A stretch of 32,000 nucleotides of DNA from Dehalococcoidia bacterium (GTDB taxonomy: Bacteria; Chloroflexota; Dehalococcoidia; GIF9; AB-539-J10): positions 11,155 to 43,154 of the forward strand of contig JAFGBN010000002.1 of assembly GCA_016933195.1 (NCBI GenBank), read 5' to 3'. This document shows, one piece after another, positions 2,012 to 31,993 of the stretch (the stretch's first letter is position 1; each line of letters opens with the position of its first letter). The notes beneath the pieces are model-generated. The model was given only the letters and a program-made list of their open reading frames with translations, was not told where the DNA came from and made no database searches. The position numbers and the translations under genes are program-made.

Positions 2012-3520
2012 GTGAGAACTTCAGCAGAATACCGTGCAGATATGAAGAAGATGAAGCCCAATCTTTATATAGGGGGCGAGAAAGTAGGCAGGGATGATCC
2101 TAGGATTCAGCCGGGCGTAAATGTTATGAGCGTTACTTTTGACCTGGCGCAGGAGCCGGACTGGGAGGGCTTAATAACCGCAACATCTTCCCTAACGCAT
2201 AAAGAGATTAATAGATTTAACCATCTCCCTCAAAATCCATATGACTTGATGCAGAAGCAGAAGATGATTCGTTTAGCTACTCAAAGAGTTGGCGGTTGCA
2301 TACAAAGATGCATGGGGCACGATGCCATAAATGCTCTTTCCATTTGCACTAAAGAGACAGATGATAAGTATGGAACAGAATATCATCGCAGGTTTATGGA
2401 TTTTCTGAGGAATTATCAAGAGAAGGATTTAACTTCTGCTTGTGCGCAGACAGATATGAAGGGAGATAGAACCAAAAGGCCTTCTGAGCAGCCAGACCCC
2501 GATGCATATGTTCATATAGTGGATGTAAGGGATGATGGGATTGTAGTGCGGGGGGCAAAAATCTCCATAACAATTCCGGCGTATGCCGATGAGATAATAG
2601 TGGTTCCAACACGTGCTTTGAAAGAAGAAGATAAGGATTATGCCGTAGCATTTGCGATTCCGGCGGATTGGGACCGCGTGAGGTTGATTACTCGCCCAGT
2701 TTGGGTGAGAGACAGGGAAGTGATTAAGGCACCTTTCACTGAATACGGCGTCTCAGATTCGGTCATAGTTTTTGATGATACATTTATCCCTAAGGAAAGA
2801 GTATTCATGTGTAAGGAATGGGACTTTGCTAGAAGGCTTGCCTTACTTTTTGCTGATTCACACAGGCATAGTTATTCCGGGTGCAAACCTGCGATATCCG
2901 ATATATTATGTGGCGTGACAGCTCTAGTTGCAGATGCGAACAATATTTCAAGAGTTGATCATGTAAGGCAAAAATTATCCGAATTTGCTGGTGGCGGAGA
3001 ACTGGCATATGCCGCTGGAGTAGCAAGTGCCATCTATGGAGAGAAGACGTCATCAGGCACCTTCTTTCCCAATGCCATATATGCCAACGTGGGAAGAAGA
3101 CTCATGGGGGAAAACATCTATCACGAATTCAACATATTGACTGAGATAGCTGGTGGACTATCAGTGACCTTGCCTTTTGAAGGTGACTTCTATGGCGAAG
3201 AAACCAAAAAAGACCTGGAGAAGTATATCGTGAGAAATCCTAAAATTTCTCCAGAAGATTCACATCGTATCTGGAGATTAGTGGAGAATGTGGGTGCTTC
3301 ACCTATGGGTGATTGGTACAAAATCGCTGGGGTTCATGGTGGTGGTTCTCCAATCATGGAGACAATCACGCTGAACATCGAGTATGATTATGAATCAAAG
3401 AAAAATATAGCAAAATATCTGGCTGGTATTGATAAGGAATTAGATCAGTCAAAAGACTTAGGAATAAAGCCCACCTTCGGAGGTAGCTTGCTGGAGGCAG
3501 ATACTCCATTGGAGAAATGA
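2012..3520 (+). CDS. abfD: 4-hydroxybutyryl-CoA dehydratase / vinylacetyl-CoA isomerase family protein (HpaB-fold flavoenzyme)
   Basis: 502 aa, GTG start, AGGAGG 9 nt upstream. It has a C-x3-C pair (GGCIQRC, C96/C100) and H-x6-C (HRHSYSGC, H284/C291). These match the spacing of the [4Fe-4S] ligands Cys99/Cys103/His292/Cys299 of the Clostridium aminobutyricum enzyme. Confidence 0.7.
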   Translation: MRTSAEYRADMKKMKPNLYIGGEKVGRDDPRIQPGVNVMSVTFDLAQEPDWEGLITATSSLTHKEINRFNHLPQNPYDLMQKQKMIRLATQRVGGCIQRCMGHDAINALSICTKETDDKYGTEYHRRFMDFLRNYQEKDLTSACAQTDMKGDRTKRPSEQPDPDAYVHIVDVRDDGIVVRGAKISITIPAYADEIIVVPTRALKEEDKDYAVAFAIPADWDRVRLITRPVWVRDREVIKAPFTEYGVSDSVIVFDDTFIPKERVFMCKEWDFARRLALLFADSHRHSYSGCKPAISDILCGVTALVADANNISRVDHVRQKLSEFAGGGELAYAAGVASAIYGEKTSSGTFFPNAIYANVGRRLMGENIYHEFNILTEIAGGLSVTLPFEGDFYGEETKKDLEKYIVRNPKISPEDSHRIWRLVENVGASPMGDWYKIAGVHGGGSPIMETITLNIEYDYESKKNIAKYLAGIDKELDQSKDLGIKPTFGGSLLEADTPLEK

Positions 3521-3599
3521 GACACTTGGAATCTCAAGAAGCGGTTAAATATCTTGTTGGAGCATTGCTGCAACAAACTTACTGAGAAGGGAGAGTTTT

Positions 3600-4433
3600 G
3601 TGAGTGAACGAAGGGAGCCATTCTTAGACAAGTTCCGCCTTTCGGGAAAGGTAGCCTTAGTTACTGGAGCAAGCCGAGGTATTGGTCGGGCCACTGCCTT
3701 GAGCCTAGCGGTGGCAGGCGCTGATGTAGTGCTTGCTAGTCGCAAGCTGCCAGATTTGGAAGCTGTGGCTCAGGAGATAACTAGTATGGGAAGGAGGTCC
3801 TTGGCTGTAACAACTAATCTCCGTAATCTCCCAGAAATCGATAACCTAGTTAAAAAAGCAGTGGATGAATTTCACCATATTGACATTCTGGTGAATAATG
3901 CCGGAGGGAATCCAGTATTCGGTTCGGTATTCAATATCAGTGAAAAAGCCTGGGATGTAACCATGGGATTGAATTTGAAGGGATATTTTTTCTTAAGTCA
4001 GGCAGTGGGCAAGGTGATGCGAGACAAGAATGCCGGGAGCATTATCAATATTGCCTCGGAAGCTGGAATTAGGCCAAGCCTCGGGTTAGGCGTTTATTCC
4101 ATGAGTAAAGCAGGCGTTATTATGCTTACGCAAGTGCTTGCTCAGGAATGGGGACAATATAATATCAGGGTAAATACAATTGCCCCTGGACTTGTGAAAA
4201 CCCGTTTTTCCGAAGCCTTATGGGGTAATCCTACGATTCGCAGAGGGTTTGAGGACAGTACAGCCTTGGGACGTATAGCTGAGCCTGAGGAAATTGCTAA
4301 TGCGGTTTTGTTTCTAGCATCGGAAGTTTCAGGCTATATGACAGGGCAGACAATTGTCTTAGACGGTGGTCATTTTGCCTCTGTTAGAACTTTATTATCG
4401 ACGATTACCTCAAAAGAAGATTCTTCTGCTTAA
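3600..4433 (+). CDS. Classical short-chain dehydrogenase/reductase (SDR)
   Basis: 277 aa with TGASRGIGRA (the TGxxxGxG cofactor motif), NNAG, and YSMSKAG (the catalytic YxxxK). GTG start with AAGGGAGAG upstream. Confidence 0.85.
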   Translation: MSERREPFLDKFRLSGKVALVTGASRGIGRATALSLAVAGADVVLASRKLPDLEAVAQEITSMGRRSLAVTTNLRNLPEIDNLVKKAVDEFHHIDILVNNAGGNPVFGSVFNISEKAWDVTMGLNLKGYFFLSQAVGKVMRDKNAGSIINIASEAGIRPSLGLGVYSMSKAGVIMLTQVLAQEWGQYNIRVNTIAPGLVKTRFSEALWGNPTIRRGFEDSTALGRIAEPEEIANAVLFLASEVSGYMTGQTIVLDGGHFASVRTLLSTITSKEDSSA

Positions 4434-5061
4434 ATGAACATCGCTTTGTGGTTCTTCTGTGCCTGGGCTCTCTTCAATCCCATTGTGTGAATAGAAAGCA
4501 CTACCGCAAAGCGCTGTAAGCCTTCAAGGCGAAGGTTGTTAAAACTTTCGTATCTGCCCTACTTATACTTTGCAGATTGCCCAAGACAAAATGCAGTCAA
4601 CAGCTAACGATAATCCTGAGAGATTACTTAATATCAGATTATTACATGCTGGGTCAGGCGAAGTAATCTCCACCGACGGATATTTAGCCAAGCGAGCATG
4701 AGACATACCCACATGAGATAGAGATACATGCGGCAGGAGCTCCTTCTAATCGGGTTAGCTTGAACAAGCTTAGTACCTTGACAATAGGAAAGGTAATGCC
4801 TGAGATAGTTAGCCCCCACTATTTAGAACTATATCCAATACTATCTGTCCGAAGTTTCTATCTGCTAGGTCTCAACAACGTCGATAGTCTGACTGGTCTT
4901 GATTTGCATATTAACCCGGAGTAAAATGCAGTGTGAATGCCTTCCCCTAGTCCACTACAATTCAAGGAAAATGGCGCTTTAGAACAAACTAGAGCGGGCA
5001 TAGAGCAAGTTAAAGGAAACCAAGAACTCACCCGGTGTGCTTTAGCTGAGGAGGTTTATAA

Positions 5062-8570: not shown

Positions 8571-9335
8571 ATGAAGATTGCCGTTAGCGGAAAAGGAGGG
8601 ACGGGCAAGACCATGTTAGTGTCCTTCCTTTCTATTATATTCGCTAAAGCTGGCTATTCTGTTATTGCCATAGATGCTGACCCAAATGTCAACCTAGCAG
8701 ATACCTTTGGCTTCCCCAATTCCGAGAAGATAATACCTATATCCAAAATGGATGACCTTATTGAGGAGAGGACAGGGGCAAGGCCTGGTCAAATGGCACC
8801 CTATTTCAAGTTAAATCCCAAAGTTGACGATTTGCCAGATAAGTGCTCTCTAAAATATGGCGGAATCAGGATAATGGTCATGGGGCCGATTAAGGCAGCT
8901 GGCAGCGGCTGTTATTGCCCCGAAGGCGCTTTGCTCGAAGCCTTGGTTGCACATTTGCTACTTAAGGTAGATGAAATAGTTATTTTAGATATGGAGGCTG
9001 GGATAGAGCATTTGACGCGGGGAACTGCGAAGGGAGTGGATAAGCTAATTATAGTAGTAGAACCAACTAGGAAGAGCGTTCTAACAGGCTATAGAGTAAG
9101 AGATTTGGCTCTAGAGGTAGGTTTGCAGAGTATCGGAGTGGTGGGCAATAAGATTCGGAATGGGAAAGAAAAGGATTTCCTTATCTCCAACATGGCAGGC
9201 TTTGAATTCCTGGGGTTTATTCCTTATGACGAAGACATAGCAGAAGCTGAGATTAGTGGTTTACCTCTCATTGAGGCCAGCGAAAAAGTTATGAGCGAAG
9301 TAAAAAACATTGCTGCTCGACTTGGTGATCGATGA
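8571..9335 (+). CDS. cooC: CooC/AcsF-type Ni-insertion ATPase (CODH/ACS maturation), canonical form
   Basis: 254 aa. It has the deviant Walker A MKIAVSGKGGTGKT and the CxC metal motif GSGCYCPEG. Its C-terminus is MinD/ParA-like (GNKIRN...LGFIPYDEDIAEAE). Confidence 0.8.
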   Translation: MKIAVSGKGGTGKTMLVSFLSIIFAKAGYSVIAIDADPNVNLADTFGFPNSEKIIPISKMDDLIEERTGARPGQMAPYFKLNPKVDDLPDKCSLKYGGIRIMVMGPIKAAGSGCYCPEGALLEALVAHLLLKVDEIVILDMEAGIEHLTRGTAKGVDKLIIVVEPTRKSVLTGYRVRDLALEVGLQSIGVVGNKIRNGKEKDFLISNMAGFEFLGFIPYDEDIAEAEISGLPLIEASEKVMSEVKNIAARLGDR

Positions 9336-9386: not shown

Positions 9387-11150
9387 ATGGCCTACGATGC
9401 AACAAAAATGAAAGACTGGCAGATTTCAGAAGCAGCTGAGGAAAAGATGCCAACCCCCGACGAGTGGCGGGAAAGATTAAACTTGCAAAAGGACGAGATT
9501 ATTCCTTTCGGGAGGCTATGCAGGCTTGATTTCATGAAGATAATTGAGCGTCTCAAGGATAGGCCGGATGGCAAATACATTGAGGTGACTGCCATAACCC
9601 CCACCCCATTAGGGGAAGGAAAAACGACGACTCTGATGGGCATCCTGGAAGGCATGGGCAAGCGAGGTCTGAATGTGGGCGGTGCAATTCGCCAGCCCTC
9701 GGGTGGCCCAACTATGAATATTAAGGGAACCGCTGCGGGCGGTGGCAATGCGCTGCTCATTCCTATGACGGAATTCTCCATGGGCCTTACCGGCGACATC
9801 AACGACATCAGCAATGCTCACAACCTGGCTATGGTGGCGCTTACTGCCAGAATGCAGCATGAGCGAAACTATAATGACGAGGAGTTGGTCAAACGCAGCA
9901 GGATGCGTCGTCTGGACATCGACCCGACCAGAGTAGAGATGGGTTGGGTCATGGATTTCTGCGCCCAAAGCCTCAGGAACATTGTTATAGGCCTCGGCGG
10001 TCGCATGGATGGCTTTGCAATGCAGTCCAAATTTGGTATCACTGTGAGTTCTGAAATCATGGCAATGCTGTCTATTGTGAACGACTTGGCGGACTTGCGT
10101 GAAAGGATGGACGAGATTACCGTAGCTTTTGATAAGAAAGGCAATCCCGTTACCACAGGCGACTTAGGAGTGGGGGGCGCCATGACCGCCTGGATGCGCA
10201 ACACTATCAATCCCACCTTGATGTGCACAGCGGAGTATCAGCCGTGCATGGTGCATGCTGGTCCCTTTGCTAACATTGCCGTGGGCCAGTCCTCCATCAT
10301 CGCTGACCGCATCGGGCTGAAGATGTATGATTATCATGTCACTGAGAGCGGCTTTGCCGCAGACATCGGGTTCGAGAAGTTCTGGAACGTCAAGTGTCGC
10401 TACAGTGGTCTCAAGCCACACGTGTCAGTACTCACCACCACTATCAGAGCACTAAAGATGCATGGTGGTGGGCCTAAGGTGGTGGCTGGTTTGCCCCTGC
10501 CTGAGTCCTACACTAAGGAGAACTTGGGGCTCTTGGAGAAAGGTATTCCTAATATGTTGCACCACATTAACACCATCAGGACATCGGGCATCAATCCTGT
10601 GGTGTGCATCAATAGCTTCCATACGGATACCAAGGAAGAAATCGCTATGGTGCGAAAGGCAGCTGAGGGGGCTGGAGCAGGCTGTGCCGTGTCCAGTCAC
10701 TGGGCTGATGGCGGCGATGGCGCTCTGGAGTTGGCTGATGCAGTTAAGGAAGCCTGCGAAGCTAAGACCGATTTCAATTTCCTTTACCCCTTGAAAATGA
10801 AACTGCGGGAACGAGTGGATAAGATTGCTAAGGTGGTATATGGAGCTGATGGAGTGTCGTGGACCCCTGATGCTGAAGCCAAAGCTAAGTCGCTTGAGGC
10901 TGATTCCAAATACGATGAGTACGCTACCATGATGGTGAAGACGCACCTGAGCCTGACCCACGATCCGTCCATTAAAGGCACTCCAAAGGGATGGATGCTA
11001 CCCATTCGCGATGTGTTGATTTATTCCGGGGCGAAGTTCCTCTGTCCCTGCGCTGGCACCATCAGCCTCATGCCAGGAACCAGCTCTGATCCTGCCTTTA
11101 GAAAGGTGGATGTCGATACAAAGACGGGCAAAGTGCAGGGGCTTTTCTAA
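9387..11150 (+). CDS. fhs: Formate--tetrahydrofolate ligase
   Basis: 587 aa with [13 protein letters not shown] (the nucleotide-binding loop), [10 protein letters not shown], and [11 protein letters not shown]. The similarity to Fhs runs the full length. Confidence 0.95.
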
Positions 11151-22611: not shown

Positions 22612-22880
22612 AGTGGAGAACAAGCAAGAATGAAGGAAGATACTGTGGCCAAAACCAACGATAACGGTATGGCATGAGAAGTGCTATCACCCAGAGAGAT
22701 GTGACAGAGAGAAATTTGTGCTGCTGTTCTTGAATATCTTAGTGGACTTTGGAAGTAAGAAAAGCGATAATATTTACCTTACCCTATTCCAGGGTTTTGC
22801 CAGTATTGAGGTACATGCGTTGAGCCATGCCCCATGGAGGCAATTAGGATGTTCTAAACAATGCACATGAAGGCAGAAAG

Positions 22881-23051
22881 ATGAGAGACAAGCGACTGTA
22901 TTGGTGCCCTTTTTGTCAGCGCAATGTTTCATTATGGAGGACAAAAGATAACAAATTAATGTGTCCCCGATGTGGTAGGGAGGTAGTTTACATAACAAGC
23001 GATGGTAGTATCGGGGCAATCAAAGGAAAAGAGCTAAGTAAGGGGAAATAG
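22881..23051 (+). CDS. Small zinc-ribbon protein (56 aa), absent from the ORF track
   Basis: Hand translation gives MRDKRLYWCPFCQRNVSLWRTKDNKLMCPRCGREVVYITSDGSIGAIKGKELSKGK*. Two CxxC knuckles lie 15 residues apart. The stop TAG at 23049-23051 is 4 nt before the next start (23056). It is on the same strand as the whole operon. The SD is weak. Confidence 0.5.
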   Translation: MRDKRLYWCPFCQRNVSLWRTKDNKLMCPRCGREVVYITSDGSIGAIKGKELSKGK

Positions 23052-23055
23052 CAAT

Positions 23056-23878: not shown

Positions 23879-24610
23879 ATGAATGCACAAACACAAAAAC
23901 CTTTTGAGGAGATCTTAGGATATCTCGAGGGTAAAAAGAAGATAGTTCTTATGGGCTGTGGAGGATGCGCTACAGTTTTTCATACAGGGGGTATAAAAGA
24001 AGTAGATGAAATGGCAGAGAAGCTAACGAAGGGGGGGAAGGAGATCATAGGCAAAATTGGACTGCCCTTCGCAGTCTTTACTTGCTATCTTCCTATGTCT
24101 TCGATGCTCTTGAGAGAACACAAGAAGGAGATAGAAGAGTGCGATGCCATGTTAATGCAGAGTTGTGGCGATGGCTTACAAGCAGTTCGGGGGTATTTGG
24201 AGGAGGAAATGGGGATCGTAAAGCCTATCTACCCATCAAACGATGCCCTCGGATTTTCTAGCGGTGGCCCTGCTGTGTTTAAGGAGGAATGCCAGGCGTG
24301 CGGGGAATGCGAGATTGGAAAGACTTTTGGTATTTGTCCCTTTGTGCAGTGCCCTAAGGGCTTGCTCAATGGGCCGTGTGGTGGTACGACTGAAGATGGC
24401 AAGTGCGAAGTAGACCCTACGCGCGACTGTGCCTGGGCTGTGATTTATAAAAGAGCAGAGGAACTTAATCAGGTTGATAAGCTTCTGGGGATAGTGGAGC
24501 CGCACCACTGGAGCAAAGCGGTAAGGCCACGTAAGTTAGAGGTTGAACCTATCGATCTTATGGAGGAACTGAAAGGAACAAAGAAAGTTATAGAAGGATT
24601 GGGAGTGTGA
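23879..24610 (+). CDS. metV: MetV-type protein (MTHFR C-terminal-domain, Cys-rich Fe-S/zinc-ribbon subunit), copy 1
   Basis: 243 aa with CQACGECEIGKTFGICPFVQCPKGLLNGPCGG..GKCEVDP..CAW, the hallmark CPK.L.NGPCGG motif of the MTHFR_C/MetV family. The N-terminus QKPFEEILGYL is shared with copy 2. Confidence 0.75.
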   Translation: MNAQTQKPFEEILGYLEGKKKIVLMGCGGCATVFHTGGIKEVDEMAEKLTKGGKEIIGKIGLPFAVFTCYLPMSSMLLREHKKEIEECDAMLMQSCGDGLQAVRGYLEEEMGIVKPIYPSNDALGFSSGGPAVFKEECQACGECEIGKTFGICPFVQCPKGLLNGPCGGTTEDGKCEVDPTRDCAWAVIYKRAEELNQVDKLLGIVEPHHWSKAVRPRKLEVEPIDLMEELKGTKKVIEGLGV

Positions 24611-24647
24611 TGTAGCTCCCTTTTGCCAGAACGCCAATTAGGCAGTA

Positions 24648-24739
24648 AAATCGGGAAAGGACGCAAAAGTGGAGGCATGAGCAAACTGAGTGAAGCATTA
24701 CAATCCCACAAGTTTGTGGTCACGGGTGAAGTCGGCCCG
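24648..24739 (+). repeat. Left copy of a 92-nt direct repeat (metF 5'UTR plus first 21 codons)
   Basis: Hand alignment to 28537-28628 gives 83/92 identical bases and no gaps. Five mismatches are in the 29-nt leader and four in the 63-nt coding part (three synonymous, one His/Gln). Confidence 0.9.
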
Positions 24740-24757
24740 CATCAAGGATCTTATTAA
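24677..24757 (+). pseudogene. metF: Truncated metF: the first 21 codons fused out of frame to foreign sequence
   Basis: MSKLSEALQSHKFVVTGEVGP matches the start of intact MetF at 28566 (MSKLSEALQSQKFVVTGEVGP). It then reads HQGSY* and terminates at 24755-24757. Confidence 0.85.
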
Positions 24758-25021
24758 GGAATTAAGAACAAGGGTTGGGAAAATTAGCCTTGTAGTTAAC
24801 AGGGTGAACGGTAAGCTTCCCTCAGAAATAGGAAAGGCGATTGATGATTTTGGGCTTTCACTCATCACTACAATCCCTGAAGACCCCTATGTTGCTGATT
24901 TGGAGATAAAAAGGAACACCGCTTGTGGCTCTCCCTCAGGATTCTTCCCTTCAGCAAAGGATGAAGGAGATAGCAAGCAAGATAAGTTGCTTAAGGAAGG
25001 AGTGCAATGAACAAAAATGTT
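24738..25021 (+). pseudogene. 3' remnant (about 94 codons) of a fourth cooC-like ATPase gene, also frameshifted
   Basis: RIKDLIKELRTRVGKISLVVNRVNGKLPSEIGKAIDDFGLSLITTIPEDPYVADLEIK aligns with the C-terminal third of the three CooC-like proteins. After the A5 run at 24908-24912 the homologous sequence continues in the +1 frame (GTPLVALPQDSSLQQRMKEIASKI..., compare LEGKSLLGLPQDSPA in the paralogues) and ends at 25021. There is no Walker A or CxC region. The ORF-track entry 24690..25010 is a read-through chimera. Confidence 0.8.
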
Positions 25022-25882
25022 GACGAATACCCCGTAATCTGGCTCCAAGGTGCCGGTTGTACCGGCTGCTCTGTATCAGTTTTAAACTCCGTTAGCCCGA
25101 CGATAAAGAATGTTCTTATTGATGAAGTTATTCCTGGAAAGCATGTGAATCTCAGGTTTCACCCCACGATAATGGCTGGGGCAGGCGAGCTGGCGATAGA
25201 AGTACTCAGGGATACACAGGAGCATCGAAAAGGAGAGTATATCCTTATCGTTGAAGGTGCAGTTCCCACGGCCGAAGATGGAGTTTATGCAGTTGTGGGG
25301 GAGGAAGATGGGAAGCCGGTAACCCTTCTTTCCAGGGTTCTTTCTTTAGGCGCTAATGCAATGGCTGTTATCGCCCTAGGAACTTGTGCTGCCTTTGGTG
25401 GGATTCCTTCTGGATCTCCCAATCCCACCGGATGTCGAGGGGTTATGGATACCTTTGAAACTCATAATATCTCAACCCCAGTGATAAACATTCCGGGCTG
25501 TCCTCCTCATCCTGACTGGTTCGTAGGGACCGTAGCCAGCATTCTTATTGGAGGGCTTCCTGAGCCTGAGGAACTTGATGAATTTGGTAGGCCGAAGCTT
25601 TTCTTTGGCTCACTGATTCACGAGAATTGCCCGCGCCGCGCCTATTACGACGAAAGGAAATTTGCTAAAAAGCTTGGGGAGCCCGGCTGTCTTTATGATC
25701 TAGGATGCAAAGGGTCTGTCACTTATGCTGATTGTCCACTTCGCCTCTGGAATGGAGGGGTGAATTGGTGCATCGGCAACAATTCTCCCTGCATCGGCTG
25801 CTGCGAGCCCGGTTTCCCAGATGTTGTATCCCCCTTCTATGCCAAGATGGAGGAATATCTCCCTCAAGGCGGGGAAAAATAA
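25007..25882 (+). CDS. [NiFe]-hydrogenase small subunit, no Tat signal peptide (cytoplasmic)
   Basis: 291 aa. It begins MNKNVDEYPVIWLQGAGCTGCSVS, so the proximal-cluster CxxC lies about 17 aa from Met1 and there is no RRxFxK leader. Further motifs are GTCAAFGG, PGCPPHPD, HENCPRR, CLYDLGCKGSVTYADCP and WCIGNNSPCIGCCEPGFPD (medial and distal clusters). Confidence 0.9.
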   Translation: MNKNVDEYPVIWLQGAGCTGCSVSVLNSVSPTIKNVLIDEVIPGKHVNLRFHPTIMAGAGELAIEVLRDTQEHRKGEYILIVEGAVPTAEDGVYAVVGEEDGKPVTLLSRVLSLGANAMAVIALGTCAAFGGIPSGSPNPTGCRGVMDTFETHNISTPVINIPGCPPHPDWFVGTVASILIGGLPEPEELDEFGRPKLFFGSLIHENCPRRAYYDERKFAKKLGEPGCLYDLGCKGSVTYADCPLRLWNGGVNWCIGNNSPCIGCCEPGFPDVVSPFYAKMEEYLPQGGEK

Positions 25883-25897
25883 GTAAGGAGGAGCAAG

Positions 25898-27454
25898 TTG
25901 GGTCAAATAATTATAGATCCGCTCACTCGAATTGAAGGTCACCTAAAAATTGAGGCCATGGTGGAGTATGGGGTGGTCAAAGAGGCAAGGTCCACAGGGA
26001 CTTTGTTCCGCGGTTTTGAAATTATCCTTCGGGGGCGGGATCCACGTGATGCACAGCGAATAACTCAAAGAATTTGTGGGGTTTGCCCCACAAGTCACTC
26101 CACTGCAGCTGCTCTAAACTTGGATAGTGCCTTTGGAATCGCTGCTAAGATCCCTGGAAATGGGCGAATCCTCCGCAATCTTATTCTTGGAGCAGCCCAT
26201 ATTGCGGATCATATCTTACATTTTTATCACCTTTCTGCTTTGGATTATGTGGATATCGCCGCCCTGGGAAAATATGAGGGAAAAGATCCAACTTTAAATT
26301 CAGTTAAAGATTTCATCACAAGAGGAGAACTTGGCCCCTTTATTACGAGGTACAACGACGATTTTCGCCTTTCCCAGGAAGCTAACGTGGAACTGGCAGC
26401 GCGTTACCTAAAGGCTTTCGAGATGCGCCGTAAGGCGCAGGAAGCGGCAGCGATATTCGGCGGGAAGCTTCCCCACAATATAGGCATTGTTCCCGGAGGG
26501 GTGACGGCTATTGCCACAGTGGATAAGATCGCCTCCTTCCTTTGGAGGTTAAATGAGCTTCGGGATTTTATTGATAATGTTTACCTCCCCGATGTAATTA
26601 AAGTGGCAAAGGCGTATCCTGACTATCTTGAAATTGGTGCAGGATGTAAGAGAACTCTCAGCTACGGAGTGTATGAGCTCGAGACTACGGAGGCTGACCT
26701 AGTAAGGAGGAAAAGGCTTTTCAAAAATGGGCTTGTTTCTGAGAGTTTAGAACTTGAGCCTTTAGACATCTCAAAGATTCGTGAGGAGGTTAGAAACTCT
26801 TGGTATGCTGAGGAGTGCGCTGGAAAGCCAACCGAGGGAAAAACTATCCCCACTCCACACAAGGAAGGTGCCTACTCTTGGATAAAATCACCTCGAAGTG
26901 ATGGCCGGGTCTGTGAAGTTGGATCTCTAGCTCGAGTTCTTGCCACATATGTTGGGGGCGATCCGAGAATGCGAGAACTTGTAGACGGAGCTTTGAAGGT
27001 AATCGGCGTCTCAGCGAAAGCGCTTTTCTCAACTTTGGGCCGGCATCTTGCTCGGGCTTTGGGAGCAAAGTTTATCGCTGATTCTATGCCTGCCTGGCTT
27101 TTAGAGCTTAAGCCAGGAGAGCCAGCATATATTGACTATGAGGTGCCTGAAGAGTCGGAAGGAATGGGCATTACTGAGGCAGCGCGTGGTGCCTTGGGGC
27201 ACTGGATAAAGATAAAGGATAGGAAAATAGCTCTATACCAATGCGTTGTTCCCACAACTTGGAATGCCTCGCCGCGTGATGACCATGAGCAGCCAGGACC
27301 TATTGAGCAGGCTTTAGCTGGGATTAAGATAAAGGATGAAAAGAACCCGGTAGAGATAGGGCGGATTGTACGTTCCTTCGATCCCTGCCTTGCTTGTGCA
27401 GTGCACCTCCTCTCACCAAAGGGAACGGAAATTGGTAGAGTTCAAGTTTGCTAA
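25898..27454 (+). CDS. [NiFe]-hydrogenase large subunit
   Basis: 518 aa, TTG start after TAAGGAGGA. It has RIEGHLKIE, the L1 motif QRICGVCPTSH and the L2 motif DPCLACAVH. The L2 motif is followed by a 15-aa tail (LLSPKGTEIGRVQVC) of the kind removed by the maturation endopeptidase. Confidence 0.92.
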   Translation: MGQIIIDPLTRIEGHLKIEAMVEYGVVKEARSTGTLFRGFEIILRGRDPRDAQRITQRICGVCPTSHSTAAALNLDSAFGIAAKIPGNGRILRNLILGAAHIADHILHFYHLSALDYVDIAALGKYEGKDPTLNSVKDFITRGELGPFITRYNDDFRLSQEANVELAARYLKAFEMRRKAQEAAAIFGGKLPHNIGIVPGGVTAIATVDKIASFLWRLNELRDFIDNVYLPDVIKVAKAYPDYLEIGAGCKRTLSYGVYELETTEADLVRRKRLFKNGLVSESLELEPLDISKIREEVRNSWYAEECAGKPTEGKTIPTPHKEGAYSWIKSPRSDGRVCEVGSLARVLATYVGGDPRMRELVDGALKVIGVSAKALFSTLGRHLARALGAKFIADSMPAWLLELKPGEPAYIDYEVPEESEGMGITEAARGALGHWIKIKDRKIALYQCVVPTTWNASPRDDHEQPGPIEQALAGIKIKDEKNPVEIGRIVRSFDPCLACAVHLLSPKGTEIGRVQVC

Positions 27455-27455
27455 C

Positions 27456-27920
27456 ATGGCTGAGGTTGGCATTGTTGGCGTCGGGAACCTACTCCTCAAA
27501 GATGAGGGAATAGGGGTTCATGTGATTCAGGCCCTTGAAAAGCTAGAAATTGAAGGTGTGAAGCTTATCGACGCCGGAACCTCTCCAGATTTCCCTTTCT
27601 TCGTTCAAGGGCTGAAGAAGCTTGTGGTCATTGATGCTGCCCAGATGGGGGGGCAGCCGGGGGTGGTTTACAAGTTCACTCTCTCTGAGCTTGAACTTGA
27701 ATCTAAAGAAACGTTCTCCCTTCATGAGATAGGGCTTATTGAAAACCTTAAGCTTGCCCAGGCTCTAGGAGGCCCAAGAGAGGTAACGATTATAGGCGTT
27801 GAACCCGCTGAAGTAAACTGGGGGCTTGAGCTCTCACCAATCCTTAGAGAAAAGTTTCCCCAGATTTTAAATCTTGTGTTGGAGGAAGGAAATGCTTTGC
27901 TCAGAACAGAAACCGTTTGA
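27456..27920 (+). CDS. Hydrogenase maturation endopeptidase (HyaD/HybD/HoxM family)
   Basis: MAEVGIVGVGNLLLKDEGIGVHVIQAL... carries the GxGNxxxxDxGxG motif. I place the start at ATG 27456, 1 nt after the large-subunit stop. The ORF-track start at 27366 lies inside the large-subunit gene. Confidence 0.8.
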   Translation: MAEVGIVGVGNLLLKDEGIGVHVIQALEKLEIEGVKLIDAGTSPDFPFFVQGLKKLVVIDAAQMGGQPGVVYKFTLSELELESKETFSLHEIGLIENLKLAQALGGPREVTIIGVEPAEVNWGLELSPILREKFPQILNLVLEEGNALLRTETV

Positions 27921-28536
27921 GGAGATCTTGGGTTATCTTAATGGAGAAAATTCCACCTTTATTGTTGGCTGTAAAGGTTGCGCCGAGGGATGTGAGAGTG
28001 GGGGTGAGCCTCAGGTTAAAGAAATAAAGGATAAATTGGAGAAAGAAGGCAAGAGGGTTAAGGGCTTTACTGTTATTGACATAGTTTGTGATGCCCATCT
28101 CTCCCGTCTAAAACTTGCCGCTCACAAGAAAGCCGTTGATGAAGCCGATTCCATTCTTGTTATGACTTGTGGGGCGGGAATTCAGACTATAGCTGAGCTC
28201 GCTGACAAGATGGTACACCCTGGTTGCAATACCATTTCCTCAGGTGGGGGTCATGCTGAGTGGAAGGAAGCGGAAAGATGTCTCGAGTGCGGCGATTGTA
28301 TACTGGAGTTTACTGGTGGCATCTGTCCCATAGCGAGATGTTCCAAGCATTTGCTTAACGGTCCCTGTGGTGGCTCGCAAGGTGGTAAGTGTGAGGTCGA
28401 TCCAAGCATTCCTTGTGCCTGGCAATTGACTATCGAGAGGCTGACTAAGCTGGGACAACTCGATAAGCTAGGGAAGATCGTGCCTCCAAAAAATTGGAAC
28501 GTAAGTCTTGTTGCAGGGCGACCAGTTAAACGGTAG
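27892..28536 (+). CDS. metV: MetV-type protein, copy 2
   Basis: MLCSEQKPFEEILGYLNG...CLECGDCILEFTGGICPIARCSKHLLNGPCGGSQGGKCEVDPSIPCAW. The start ATG at 27892 follows GGAGGAAGGAA and aligns with the copy-1 N-terminus. It overlaps the protease gene by 29 nt. Confidence 0.75.
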   Translation: MLCSEQKPFEEILGYLNGENSTFIVGCKGCAEGCESGGEPQVKEIKDKLEKEGKRVKGFTVIDIVCDAHLSRLKLAAHKKAVDEADSILVMTCGAGIQTIAELADKMVHPGCNTISSGGGHAEWKEAERCLECGDCILEFTGGICPIARCSKHLLNGPCGGSQGGKCEVDPSIPCAWQLTIERLTKLGQLDKLGKIVPPKNWNVSLVAGRPVKR

Positions 28537-28628
28537 AATTCGGGAAAGAAAGCAAAAGGGGAGACATGAGCAAACTTAGCGAAGCATTACAATCCCAAAA
28601 GTTTGTGGTCACGGGTGAAGTCGGCCCA
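28537..28628 (+). repeat. Right copy of the 92-nt direct repeat (authentic metF leader plus first 21 codons)
   Basis: See 24648-24739. The two copies are 3889 bp apart in the same orientation. Confidence 0.9.
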
Positions 28629-29435
28629 CCTAAAGGCGTGGCCATTCAGGAAATGATAGAGTCATGTGAACTGTACAAAGGGAGAGTTGTAGCAGTCAAT
28701 GTAACTGATCAACAAAGTGCTGTAATGAGATTAGGTTCACTGGCAGTTTGTCACCTTCTGATAGATATGGAAATCGAACCTATTTTTCAAGTAACCTGCC
28801 GTGACCGTAATCGCATTGGCATACAATCAGATTTGCTCAGTGCCTATGTGCTCGGGATTGAGAATATCCTTTGCCTCACCGGCGACTATGTTACTTTAGG
28901 TGACCATCCCCAAGCCAAACCCGTTTTTGACCTTGACTCAGTTTCCTTGCTCCAGGCTGCGGTTCAATTGCAGCAAGGTAGAGACTTGGCAGGAAAGGAG
29001 ATCCAGGGCTTCCCTAAGTTTTTCTTGGGTGCTACAGTTAATCCTGGCGCTAATCCTTTAGAGCCGCAGATTATCAAGATGGAGAAAAAGGTCAAAGCTG
29101 GGGCTCAGTTTTTCCAGACCCAGGCCGTTTATGAGCCCAAGAAATTTGAGGAATTTATGCAAGCGGTGAAACATCTCGGTGTGCCTGTGCTAGCGGGAAT
29201 CATTCTCCTGAAGTCGGCTGGTATGGCTCGTTTTATGAACAAAAATGTTGCTGGAGTCCACGTGCCTGATAATCTCATTGAGGAAATGGAGAAGGCAGAA
29301 AAAAGAGTAGACAAAAGCATTGAAATCGCTGCTCGACTGATTAACGAGCTCAGGGGGCTTTGTCAGGGGGTGCACATCATGCCTATCGGCTGGGAGAAAA
29401 GAGTCCCAGCAGTCTTAGATGTGGCTGAGTTATAG
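28566..29435 (+). CDS. metF: Methylenetetrahydrofolate reductase, acetogen-type small MetF, copy 1
   Basis: 289 aa with ...AVNVTDQQSAVMRLGS...QVTCRDRNRIGIQSDLL...ENILCLTGDY...FFQTQAVYE..., a typical MetF TIM barrel. It follows metV directly. Confidence 0.85.
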   Translation: MSKLSEALQSQKFVVTGEVGPPKGVAIQEMIESCELYKGRVVAVNVTDQQSAVMRLGSLAVCHLLIDMEIEPIFQVTCRDRNRIGIQSDLLSAYVLGIENILCLTGDYVTLGDHPQAKPVFDLDSVSLLQAAVQLQQGRDLAGKEIQGFPKFFLGATVNPGANPLEPQIIKMEKKVKAGAQFFQTQAVYEPKKFEEFMQAVKHLGVPVLAGIILLKSAGMARFMNKNVAGVHVPDNLIEEMEKAEKRVDKSIEIAARLINELRGLCQGVHIMPIGWEKRVPAVLDVAEL

Positions 29436-29489: not shown

Positions 29490-30617
29490 TTGCCTAATAA
29501 AGAAATAATATTACAGGTTCTGAGAGCCTCCAGCATATTTGAAGAGGTCAACGATGAGGCATTATCCAAGATAGCTACTTTTTCCCATGAAGTAAGCTTC
29601 CAGCCCGGGGAAATCATCTTTGCTGAAGGCGATGTTGCCGAGAAGTTGTATATTCTAGTGGAGGGAGAGGTAGGCATCGAGGCTAGGCTATCGACTCGGC
29701 CTGGCTCAGTGAGGCGGGGTACTATTGAAAGTGTCGCCCCCGGTGGAGTCTTCGGTTGGTCAGCCATCCTCGAAACTCACCTTACTATGGGTGCTCGAGC
29801 TATCTCTGCAGCTAAGGCGATTGCTGTTGATGGCCATGCCTTGCATTCTCTCCTTGCGCAAGACACGGAACTGTGCTCACCAGTGATGAGGAAATTGGTA
29901 GATATTGTTTCTCTTCGACTTGCCAACACCAGAATTACGCTGGCACATATTCTCTCAGTTTGCTCCCACGATTTGAAAGCACCTTTAGCTGCTGTGCAGA
30001 GCTATCTTCAGGTCATTCTTGGTGGTTTTGTTGGCGAGCTAAATGAAAAGCAAAGGGAGATGCTCTCCCGAAGCTGCGTCAGAATTGCTGAGTTCATTGA
30101 GATGATTGATAATATTCTGGATATTTCCCGCTTTGAAGTTGGTGCGGTGGAGATGGAGAACTTATCCTTGCCCGAGGTGGTTCGTGATAGCATCGAGATG
30201 CTTCGTCCTCTAGCTGAGGAGAAGAAACTGAATTTTACGCTGGATTTAGCTCAAGATGTGCCCAAAGTTAAAGGCTCAGCGACACGTATCAAGCAGGTAG
30301 TCGCTAACTTAGTAGGGAATGCCATTAAATTCACTCCGTCTCAAGGTGAGATTTCTATTAAGTTAAAGGAGGATGATGGTTACCTCAGGGTAGAAGTGGC
30401 TGATACTGGCGTGGGTATATCTCCTGAGGAGTTGCCCAAGATATTTGATGATTTCTATCGTGGGGTAGCCGGAGGCACCGAAGCTAAAGGAACTGGCTTG
30501 GGGCTTTCCATTAGCAAGAAAATTATCGAGACTCACGGTGGGAGAATTTGGGCAGAAAGCCCTTGCCCTGAGACGGGGAGAGGCAGCAAGTTTGTTTTTG
30601 CCTTGCTCAAGAGCTAG
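29490..30617 (+). CDS. Soluble sensor histidine kinase with an N-terminal cNMP-binding-like (CAP effector) domain
   Basis: 375 aa. The N-terminus resembles a CAP effector domain (FEEVNDEAL...FQPGEIIFAEGDVAEKLYILVEGEV...GGVFGWSAIL). It has the H-box SHDLKAPL, the N-box GNAIKFTP, G1 DTGVGI and G2 GTGLGLS. There are no hydrophobic segments. The start is uncertain: TTG at 29490 is the first plausible start after the in-frame stop at 29472. Confidence 0.8.
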   Translation: MPNKEIILQVLRASSIFEEVNDEALSKIATFSHEVSFQPGEIIFAEGDVAEKLYILVEGEVGIEARLSTRPGSVRRGTIESVAPGGVFGWSAILETHLTMGARAISAAKAIAVDGHALHSLLAQDTELCSPVMRKLVDIVSLRLANTRITLAHILSVCSHDLKAPLAAVQSYLQVILGGFVGELNEKQREMLSRSCVRIAEFIEMIDNILDISRFEVGAVEMENLSLPEVVRDSIEMLRPLAEEKKLNFTLDLAQDVPKVKGSATRIKQVVANLVGNAIKFTPSQGEISIKLKEDDGYLRVEVADTGVGISPEELPKIFDDFYRGVAGGTEAKGTGLGLSISKKIIETHGGRIWAESPCPETGRGSKFVFALLKS

Positions 30618-30644
30618 GCTTAGAATTGAAAGGAATCGAGGACA

Positions 30645-31585: not shown

Positions 31586-31993
31586 ATGGCGGAACAGAAG
31601 ACAAAAATCTTAATTGTAGATGATGACCCAGACATTCTAATTGCTATTGGAGCTGTCCTGGAGGCGCGAAACTATCAAGTCGTCACCGCCCGGGATGGGG
31701 AGGAGGGTTTGGCTAAACTCAAGGAAGAAGGAGCCGATTTGATGATTTTAGACCTCTTAATGCCTCGGAAGGATGGCTTTGCCGTTTGCAAGGAATTGAA
31801 AGACCCTCGGTGGTCGAAATATGGCAATATCCCGATATTGATCCTAACTTCGGTAAGGGAAGAGGTCAGCCGAAGGCGCTATCAACTGGAGACTGGCTTA
31901 AGTCTCGATGTTGATGACTATGTTGAAAAGCCCATTGACCCATTTGTGCTGGTTAAGCGAGTGGAAAACCTTCTAAAAAGGGGGAAATCGTAG
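31586..31993 (+). CDS. Single-domain (CheY-like) response regulator
   Basis: 135 aa with ILIVDDDPDI, the phospho-acceptor context DLMILDLLMPRKDG, LILTSV and DDYVEKP. There is no output domain. Confidence 0.85.
   Translation: MAEQKTKILIVDDDPDILIAIGAVLEARNYQVVTARDGEEGLAKLKEEGADLMILDLLMPRKDGFAVCKELKDPRWSKYGNIPILILTSVREEVSRRRYQLETGLSLDVDDYVEKPIDPFVLVKRVENLLKRGKS

Follow-up and report, generated by a model that had tools for sequence, protein, structure and literature searches.

Gene Order at the Locus

The window, i.e., the whole 32,000-nt stretch of DNA that was analyzed, comes from an uncultured member of the Dehalococcoidia, described as marine and as subsurface, and carries a Wood-Ljungdahl gene cluster. 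The cluster reads cooC, fhs, acsE, the cdh/acs genes, nuoE- and nuoF-like genes, two cooC-like genes and metV1 (23879..24610, + strand; 243 aa, matching PF12225 with an E value of 1.7e-29), which is followed by a scar made of the remains of two genes. Beyond the scar, and on the same strand, lie hydS (25007-25882), hydL (25898-27454), a maturation protease gene (27456-27920), metV2 (27892-28536) and an intact metF of 289 aa (metF289, 28566-29435), which has MTHFR family matches and is the functional copy, followed in turn by a histidine kinase gene, a second metF of 305 aa (metF305) and a response regulator gene. All of the sequences compared in this work are metagenome assemblies.

The Truncated metF and Its Direct Repeat

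The scar begins with a metF leader and codons 1-21 (24634..24747, + strand, with an ungapped core at 24648-24739), which align with the leader and codons 1-21 of metF289 in the same orientation (28522..28636, + strand, core at 28537-28628). The initial annotation had described this pair, and its account holds upon alignment: the two cores are identical at 83 of 92 positions, ungapped, direct and spaced 3889 bp apart, their coding part is identical at 58 of 62 positions, with three of the four differences being synonymous, and the right copy is the authentic start of an intact gene, while the metV genes upstream of the two copies are indeed highly diverged, metV1 and metV2 sharing only ~42% amino-acid identity. 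When one gap is allowed, the homology lengthens to 24634-24747 and 28522-28636, with 86% identity over 115 nt; the longest perfect run between the repeats is 49 nt, a conserved stretch located at 24690-24738. Matches this good are expected ~1e-30 times by chance in 32 kb. The 14 nt that precede the core of the left repeat resemble the 3' end of a metV2-type gene.

The stub ORF itself (24677..24757, + strand) starts with ATG and comprises 21 metF codons, five out-of-context codons (HQGSY) and a TAA stop (MSKLSEALQSHKFVVTGEVGPHQGSY*). It matches metF289 in tblastn with 21/24 identities (E 2e-10) and is devoid of the TIM-barrel catalytic domain of MTHFR (PF02219), with only 21 codons preceding the junction. 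The junction zone (24734..24747, + strand) shows patchy microhomology of the form GCCC.C...AAGG, and the breakpoint can be placed no finer than within this zone; the comparison of these 14 nt was made with the intact cooC-like genes of relatives, none of which is the true donor, and consists of the GCCC run and scattered matches.

No RNA element was found in the repeated leader with Rfam, no terminator was found inside the scar, and the counts of promoter sites in the scar region are not above those of shuffled controls. The best promoter-like match, 5' of the left metF leader at 24623-24651, has the hexamers TTGCCA-17-TAAAAT, and a similar pair is seen 5' of metF305 at 30598-30626 (TTGCCT-17-TAGAAT). 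That the leader of the stub might drive the hydrogenase block is a lead only.

The cooC-Like Remnant

Past the junction, the sequence continues as the 3' end of a cooC-like gene (24740..24994, + strand), which corresponds to residues 171-255 of an intact 255-aa CooC-type ATPase and is collinear with six intact orthologues. The abrupt switch that the initial annotation had placed at about 24738-24748 is thereby upheld, the remnant retaining the last 85 codons. It matches TIGR01969 at positions 151-240 (E 9e-7), and the best solved-structure match of the intact orthologue is CooC (PDB 3KJE; E 3e-24, residues 5-233), the nickel-insertion ATPase for CO dehydrogenase. Like CooC, the intact orthologues have a GKGGTGKT motif (residues 9-16) and a CYC motif (approximately residues 110-112); unlike CooC, they adjoin a hydrogenase and not a CO dehydrogenase, and the copy in the window keeps only the last third of the gene, twice frameshifted. 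Starting at residue 171, past the P-loop, the remnant lacks the deviant Walker A motif (GKGGxGK[ST]), and it also lacks the CxC metal-binding motif of CooC, which lies upstream of the breakpoint. Its profile match and its collinearity with the 255-aa orthologues, which in turn match the CooC structure, show its descent from the CooC/MinD-type family of P-loop ATPases. The cooC paralogues present elsewhere in the window (at 8571, 21826, and 23056) were considered as its source and ruled out, as they show no significant similarity to it.

The reading frame of the remnant is broken by two +1 frameshifts. The first, at an A5 run where the orthologues have one base fewer (24908..24912, + strand), had been recognized in the initial annotation, and is real; the second, an extra base near 24986 (24984..24988, + strand; AAGATAAGTTGCTTAA versus AGGGTAA-TCGCTTAA), had been overlooked. 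Both frameshifts are present in two populations, and six of the six orthologues are unshifted. With two single-base corrections the remnant reads through as IKDLIKELRTRVGKISLVVNRVNGKLPSEIGKAIDDFGLSLITTIPEDPYVADLEIKGTPLVALPQDSSLQQRMKEIASKIIA, ending in ...KEIASKIIA, which places the ancestral stop at TAA 24992-24994, 12 nt before the ATG of hydS. The earlier proposal that the ancestral frame ended at 25021, overlapping hydS, was in error because only the first frameshift had been seen. The orthologous cooC-like genes end 20-30 nt before hydS, and relative to them the spacer before hydS has suffered a deletion of 9-17 nt. The remnant is 69% identical between the window and the loci with the intact gene (type D, see below) versus 90% among the latter, and for hydS the corresponding values are 83% versus 93%. 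The segment 24677-24994 is a non-functional metF::cooC-like pseudogene fusion.

A 106-aa ORF with a GTG start spans the junction (24690..25010, + strand); it is a by-product of the scar and not a gene. It is annotated by gene callers, its sole database copy being entered as 'MAG: hypothetical protein JW732_00215 [Dehalococcoidia bacterium]', and its stop overlaps the start of hydS, so that one could imagine a genuine gene, or a C-terminal CooC domain decoded by frameshifting and translationally coupled to hydS via the ATGA at 25007-25010. The probability of this is nearly negligible, since a search for homologues in 5.8 billion proteins returned the ORF itself as its only match (P0121), and no Pfam match was found above the cut-off. 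The absence of the P-loop and of the CxC motif, the faster divergence of the remnant than of hydS, the spacing of 20-30 nt between orthologues and hydS, and the presence of two frameshifts of the same sign where all six orthologues are unshifted speak against a gene as well as against programmed frameshifting.

Occurrence of the Scar in Other Assemblies

The scar is present in three assemblies from two populations, i.e., the window, L003, and L008, with a further locus (L025) covering the right side only. L003, an independent Logan assembly built from SRR13394437, extends across both repeats without any difference from the window, whereas L008, a 37-kb JGI contig, comes from a different population with flanks diverged by ~7% and has the same junction and both frameshifts. 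Two MAG contigs from ENA (L001 and L009) break exactly within the repeats, as short-read assemblies do; these are 100% identical to L008 and were not counted as an additional population.

The initial annotation had raised the question of misassembly, and the data being metagenomic throughout, with contigs that break precisely in the repeats, a chimeric or collapsed join in a metagenome bin has to be considered. The recurrence of the junction and of both frameshifts in L003, across both repeats, and in L008, in another population with 7% diverged flanks, makes such an artefact extremely improbable. It has to be noted that strain-chimeric joins could in principle arise in metagenome assemblies at 24690-24738 or in metV2; the block between the two differs by 14 lineage-specific SNPs between the window and L008.

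Gene Orders in Related Genomes

Relatives were recovered via the contexts of metV1, metV2, and hydS homologues, with the metV1 homologues being 83-93% identical, and they display six gene orders. Type A (L010-L012; metV1 83% identical) represents the "empty" state, with nuoF, two cooC-like genes, metV1, metF289, a kinase gene, and metF305. Type B (L006, and in part L004, L005, and L007; metV1 93% identical) has metV1, a full left metF of 283 aa, a FlpD/MvhD-polyferredoxin gene, a metV, and metF289. Type C comprises the window and L008, as well as the right side of L025, and carries the scar and the hydrogenase block; metV1 forms the left flank common to types A, B, and C. Type D (L002, L014, L015, L019, L020, L021, and L023, full or partial) has nuoF, an intact cooC-like gene, hydS, hydL, the protease gene, a metV, and metF305. 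In type E (L026-L033, at least 24 contigs; metV1 89% identical) a distantly related hydrogenase block lies upstream of metV1-metF289, with metF305-like and kinase fragments beside it, and in type F (L034) the order is hydL, protease gene, a metV2-type gene, a metV1-type gene, metF, and DUF3786.

Both ancestors of the fusion are found intact among these relatives. The view of the initial annotation that a cooC-like gene had preceded the hydrogenase ancestrally is borne out by at least six related loci in which an intact 255-aa cooC-like gene lies directly upstream of hydS, e.g., in L002, a Dehalococcoidales MAG, directly between nuoF and hydS, with five further loci being alike. Its view that the left repeat had once headed a full metF is likewise supported: in L006 and L040, a full-length left metF follows the orthologous metV1. 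In L040, which is nearest to L008 as judged by metV1, the left copy of metF (1082-1430) extends beyond codon 21, but with a frameshift near codons 18-21 and with the loss of conserved residues, and is thus a decaying paralogue. Since this copy continues past codon 21 and yet is frameshifted and degenerate, the left metF was once a whole gene and was dispensable.

The 92-nt repeats are the 5' ends of old tandem metF paralogues and were not made by an insertion. Their age is apparent from L040, where the left copy is only 84-87% identical to right-type copies. The two full metF copies of L006 (1306-2225 versus 4005-4926) are 97.3% identical and nearer to each other than to the metF of the window, presumably owing to gene conversion between tandem paralogues. 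A character of the left copy, AGT versus AGC at Ser4, holds in the window, L008, and L006, but fails in L040; for this reason, the orthology of the left metF copies rests mainly on synteny with metV1 and on the homologous spacer. Within this spacer between metV1 and the left metF (24623-24647; L006 ~1306-1330; L010 ~10750-10795), a stretch reading ARPPIKR*, versus AGRPVKR* at the end of metV2, looks like the relic of a metV2-type 3' end with its stop codon, and it is present in type A relatives, too. It would represent an older scar, left from a time when metF289 was preceded by a metV2-type gene.

In type E loci, the hydS of the block upstream of metV1-metF289 is 69% identical, and beside the block are pieces of a metF305-like gene and of a histidine kinase (residues 139-170; L026 647-742; L027 134-484 and 835-930; L028 237-473). 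These pieces form a second set of recombination scars in this neighborhood, independent of the first.

Block Boundaries and the Mosaic metV2

The gene orders define an imported block of ~3.6 kb (24739..28300, + strand), which comprises the cooC remnant, hydS, hydL, the protease gene, and the 5' two-thirds of metV2, is absent from types A and B, and is 81-86% identical to type D loci. On the left, homology of the window to both L006 and the type A relatives stops at 24738. On the right, homology to L006 resumes at 28288, inside metV2, and not at the right repeat; in a per-site alignment the window follows type D to ~28300 and follows L006 from ~28313. The right-hand crossover zone (28288..28312, + strand) thus lies at the start of the conserved C-terminal domain of MetV, with the block ending at approximately 28290-28312, some 240 nt before the right repeat, so that the edges of the block and the repeats do not coincide. 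The hydrogenase module had been suggested in the initial annotation to be gained or lost as a unit; this is supported insofar as the module is transferable, but the unit that varies and was recently exchanged has its left limit at metF codon 21 and its right limit midway along metV2 (~24739-28300), and does not reach from repeat to repeat.

The 5' part of metV2 is 81-84% identical to type D, 62-64% to types E and F, and 47% to L006, versus 72-75%, 78-80%, and 97.7%, respectively, for its 3' part, while pairs of type D loci show uniform identity along metV. The contrast between the two parts (222-396 sites) is significant at a Fisher p of 0.01-0.05 per pair and is accompanied by a conflict in topology, which identifies metV2 as a mosaic whose crossover lies where the conserved domain begins. 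In L006, the metV gene (3377-4027) looks mosaic, too, its shared 3' end being fused to a 5' part that is only 43-47% identical to any other metV examined. This suggests that crossovers have taken place in the conserved metV domain on more than one occasion.

Recent Spread of the Block

A pronounced discontinuity in divergence coincides with the block. Between the window and L008, the block (24689-28300) has 14 differences in 3612 positions (0.39%), versus 805 in 10970 (7.3%) in the flanks, a contrast with a Fisher p of 1e-81. At third codon positions, hydS, hydL, the protease gene, and the 5' part of metV2 are 99-100% identical, as compared with 83-89% for nuoF, metV1, metF289, the kinase gene, and metF305. 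A third lineage (L025) is 98.3-98.6% identical in the block versus 92-95% in metF289. Since selection cannot hold synonymous sites identical, the common ancestor of the block must be much more recent than that of its flanks, and because the illegitimate joint and the two frameshifts are common to both lineages, the block had a single origin, after which it was transferred by recombination in the arms that the lineages share. The hydrogenase genes thus behave as a transferable unit that has been passed between diverged relatives almost unchanged.

Unequal homologous recombination between direct repeats is known to result in deletion. The 92-nt repeats, at 90% identity and 3889 bp apart, would by this route rebuild an in-frame metF and give an intact metV1-metF, as had been pointed out in the initial annotation, and that arrangement does exist in the more distant L010-L012. 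Unlike in a typical deletion of this kind, the product is not seen in close relatives and the longest perfect run is only 49 nt: among relatives of at least 90% identity no popped-out or pre-insertion allele was found, and the empty arrangement is seen only in those with 83% metV1 identity. The repeats could still mediate loss of the hydrogenase block.

The same features could be read as integration of a circle carrying the block and one 92-nt repeat by a single, reversible Campbell-type crossover at the metF leader, which would account for direct repeats flanking the block, for the existence of the empty site metV1-metF289 in L010-L012, and for an excision that restores metF in frame. We regard such an event as very improbable, since the exchanged block of low divergence ends in metV2, ~240 nt before the right repeat, the right repeats of the window and L008 differ from their first bases, and neither left repeat matches the right repeat of the other lineage as would be expected from a shared circle. 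The full-length left metF in relatives, moreover, identifies the left repeat as the remnant of a whole gene and not as a target duplication, and the repeat copies have diverged by ~10%.

A Model for the Origin of the Scar

The arrangement is probably explained by a model in which a donor fragment replaced the body of the redundant left metF together with its neighbors, with the resulting block spreading later by means of its flanking homology. In this model, the resident locus would have started as metV1, a full left metF, other genes, a resident metV, and metF289, and the donor would have been a type D-like lineage with a cytoplasmic [NiFe] hydrogenase operon (cooC-like gene, hydS, hydL, protease gene, metV, and metF). 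The span from codon 22 of the left metF to approximately codon 135 of the resident metV would have been replaced, with an illegitimate left joint connecting metF codon 21 to codon ~171 of the cooC-like gene at patchy microhomology and a right joint within the region coding for the conserved C-terminal domain of MetV, an exchange that would take the form of homology-facilitated illegitimate recombination (HFIR). The truncated cooC-like piece would then have decayed, acquiring two +1 frameshifts and the spacer deletion, and the finished block, scar included, would have moved between the ~7% diverged lineages through ordinary homologous recombination within the flanks that they share. The anatomy of the scar, its status as a pseudogene, the intact ancestors of its two halves, the limits of the block, the mosaic of metV2, and the break in divergence are seen directly in the comparisons; the order of these events, their number (one step or two), and the route by which DNA was transferred are what we infer from the gene orders and alignments. 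The true donor lineage is unsampled, with even the nearest type D loci reaching only 81-86% identity to the block, and the right-hand anchor is ~75% identical overall between donor-type and resident-type sequences, which is low for a RecA-driven exchange, although conserved runs exist.

It has also been considered, following the initial annotation, that a single deletion from metF into the cooC-like gene made the junction. In such a two-step route, a full hydrogenase operon would first have come to lie downstream of a full left metF, with one illegitimate deletion then removing the sequence from metF codon 22 to codon 170 of the cooC-like gene. This variant is viable, as both intact parents exist in relatives, the deletion yields exactly the junction observed, and the joint shows patchy microhomology; we nevertheless consider it unlikely, though clearly possible. 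The undeleted ancestor that the initial annotation had expected in syntenic loci (metV-metF...cooC-hydSL) was not found, with no locus among ~40, in six arrangement types, combining metV1 with intact copies of both metF and the cooC-like gene, and an arrangement of intact cooC-like gene, hydSL, protease gene, metV, and metF289 was not found in the contexts of metV1 and metV2 homologues, either. In addition, a deletion alone leaves the right edge of the block inside metV2 and the mosaic of metV2 unexplained, such that a prior recombination in metV is still required. The accompanying claim that the deletion had joined two formerly separate loci is not supported by the relatives, in which one and the same position is filled by either content, depending on the lineage. 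As for the junction itself, one-step replacement and a longer insertion followed by a later deletion cannot be told apart.

Relation to Known Systems and Implications

The scar itself is an ordinary pseudogene junction, produced by a known kind of event, and it is its metabolic setting that is of interest. The switching of capsule or O-antigen loci represents the replacement of cassettes between conserved flanks, and resembles the present case in that alternative blocks occupy one site between shared arms, with the block being far less diverged than the flanks. It differs in that the stub of a gene's 5' end and the conserved metV domain serve here as the arms, within an operon of central metabolism, and that the cargo is a hydrogenase instead of a surface-structure locus. 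HFIR has been described in Acinetobacter, S. pneumoniae, and P. stutzeri (PMC6382021). In those systems, one end of the foreign DNA is anchored in homologous sequence, the other is joined at a microhomology of a few bases (3-10 bp) without extended homology, and the resident DNA between the two is replaced. In the present case, the right boundary, in metV2, falls within homologous or homeologous sequence, with 5' and 3' parts that have different nearest relatives, and the left joint shows the GCCC run and scattered matches in its 14-nt zone. Unlike the described cases, the present one is deduced from sequence comparison, and the anchor is the homeologous domain of a paralogue with ~75% identity.

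The marine Chloroflexi DscP3 have an hdrABC-mvhD-metVF cluster with two sets of metV/metF and two-component genes flanking metF_1 (PMC5736913). The backbone of the window, with metV1, metF289, histidine kinase, metF305, and response regulator, followed by the hdr-like genes that are seen in L008 and L010, matches this layout and the type A relatives, but the window differs by the presence of a [NiFe] hydrogenase block inside the metVF region. That single-cell work on related Chloroflexi yielded no evidence that H2 serves as an electron donor (PMC5736913), and what donates electrons to MetVF-type reductases is still under debate (PMC8760232).

The hydS product of the window, the small subunit of the [NiFe] hydrogenase, has no Tat signal, its match to the NiFeSe small-subunit model begins at profile position 37, and the relatives in L002, L015, L021, and L023 all begin with M..KV.EYPVIWLQG. 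The hydrogenase is thus apparently cytoplasmic, and it adjoins metV-metF in four gene orders (types C, D, E, and F), a recurrence of neighbors that hints at a functional link to methylene-THF reduction. A more far-reaching and rather doubtful proposal is that the hydrogenase-protease-metV block is a recombination-mobile metabolic module that, placed beside metF, gives the MetVF methylene-THF reductase of marine Dehalococcoidia a direct input of H2, with the C-terminal domain of metV and the 5' ends of metF being recurrent "handles" for swapping. If that were true, electron-input modules would be swapped at one site, i.e., hydrogenase versus FlpD/MvhD-polyferredoxin, the scar would be the trace left by a swap of this kind, and a recent selective spread would account for the block being nearly identical in diverged lineages. 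Populations that carry the hydrogenase block, those that carry the FlpD block, and those that lack both form a natural comparison for studying whether H2 feeds methylene-THF reduction. The scar would furthermore provide a dated and traceable marker of the splicing of a hydrogenase module into a Wood-Ljungdahl/MetVF cluster, once, and of its spread among ~7% diverged lineages, as well as a clean example of operon remodeling by one illegitimate and one homeologous joint.

Additional Features of the Flanking Regions

The stretch of the window most diverged from L008 (77-82% identity) is located at 22612-23055, between the two cooC-like genes. It includes a 56-aa Zn-ribbon-like ORF with a CxxC...CxxC pattern and without a family match (22881-23051), and type A relatives have a similar-sized ORF at this place (54 aa in L010). 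On the other side of the block, a kinase with a cNMP-binding domain and response regulators (29490-30617 and 31586-31993; L008 14138-17166) are interleaved with both metF genes. Downstream of these metF, kinase, and regulator genes follow ferredoxin-like, CCG-domain (HdrB-like), and very large HdrA/GltD-like genes, a layout that fits the published DscP3 cluster.
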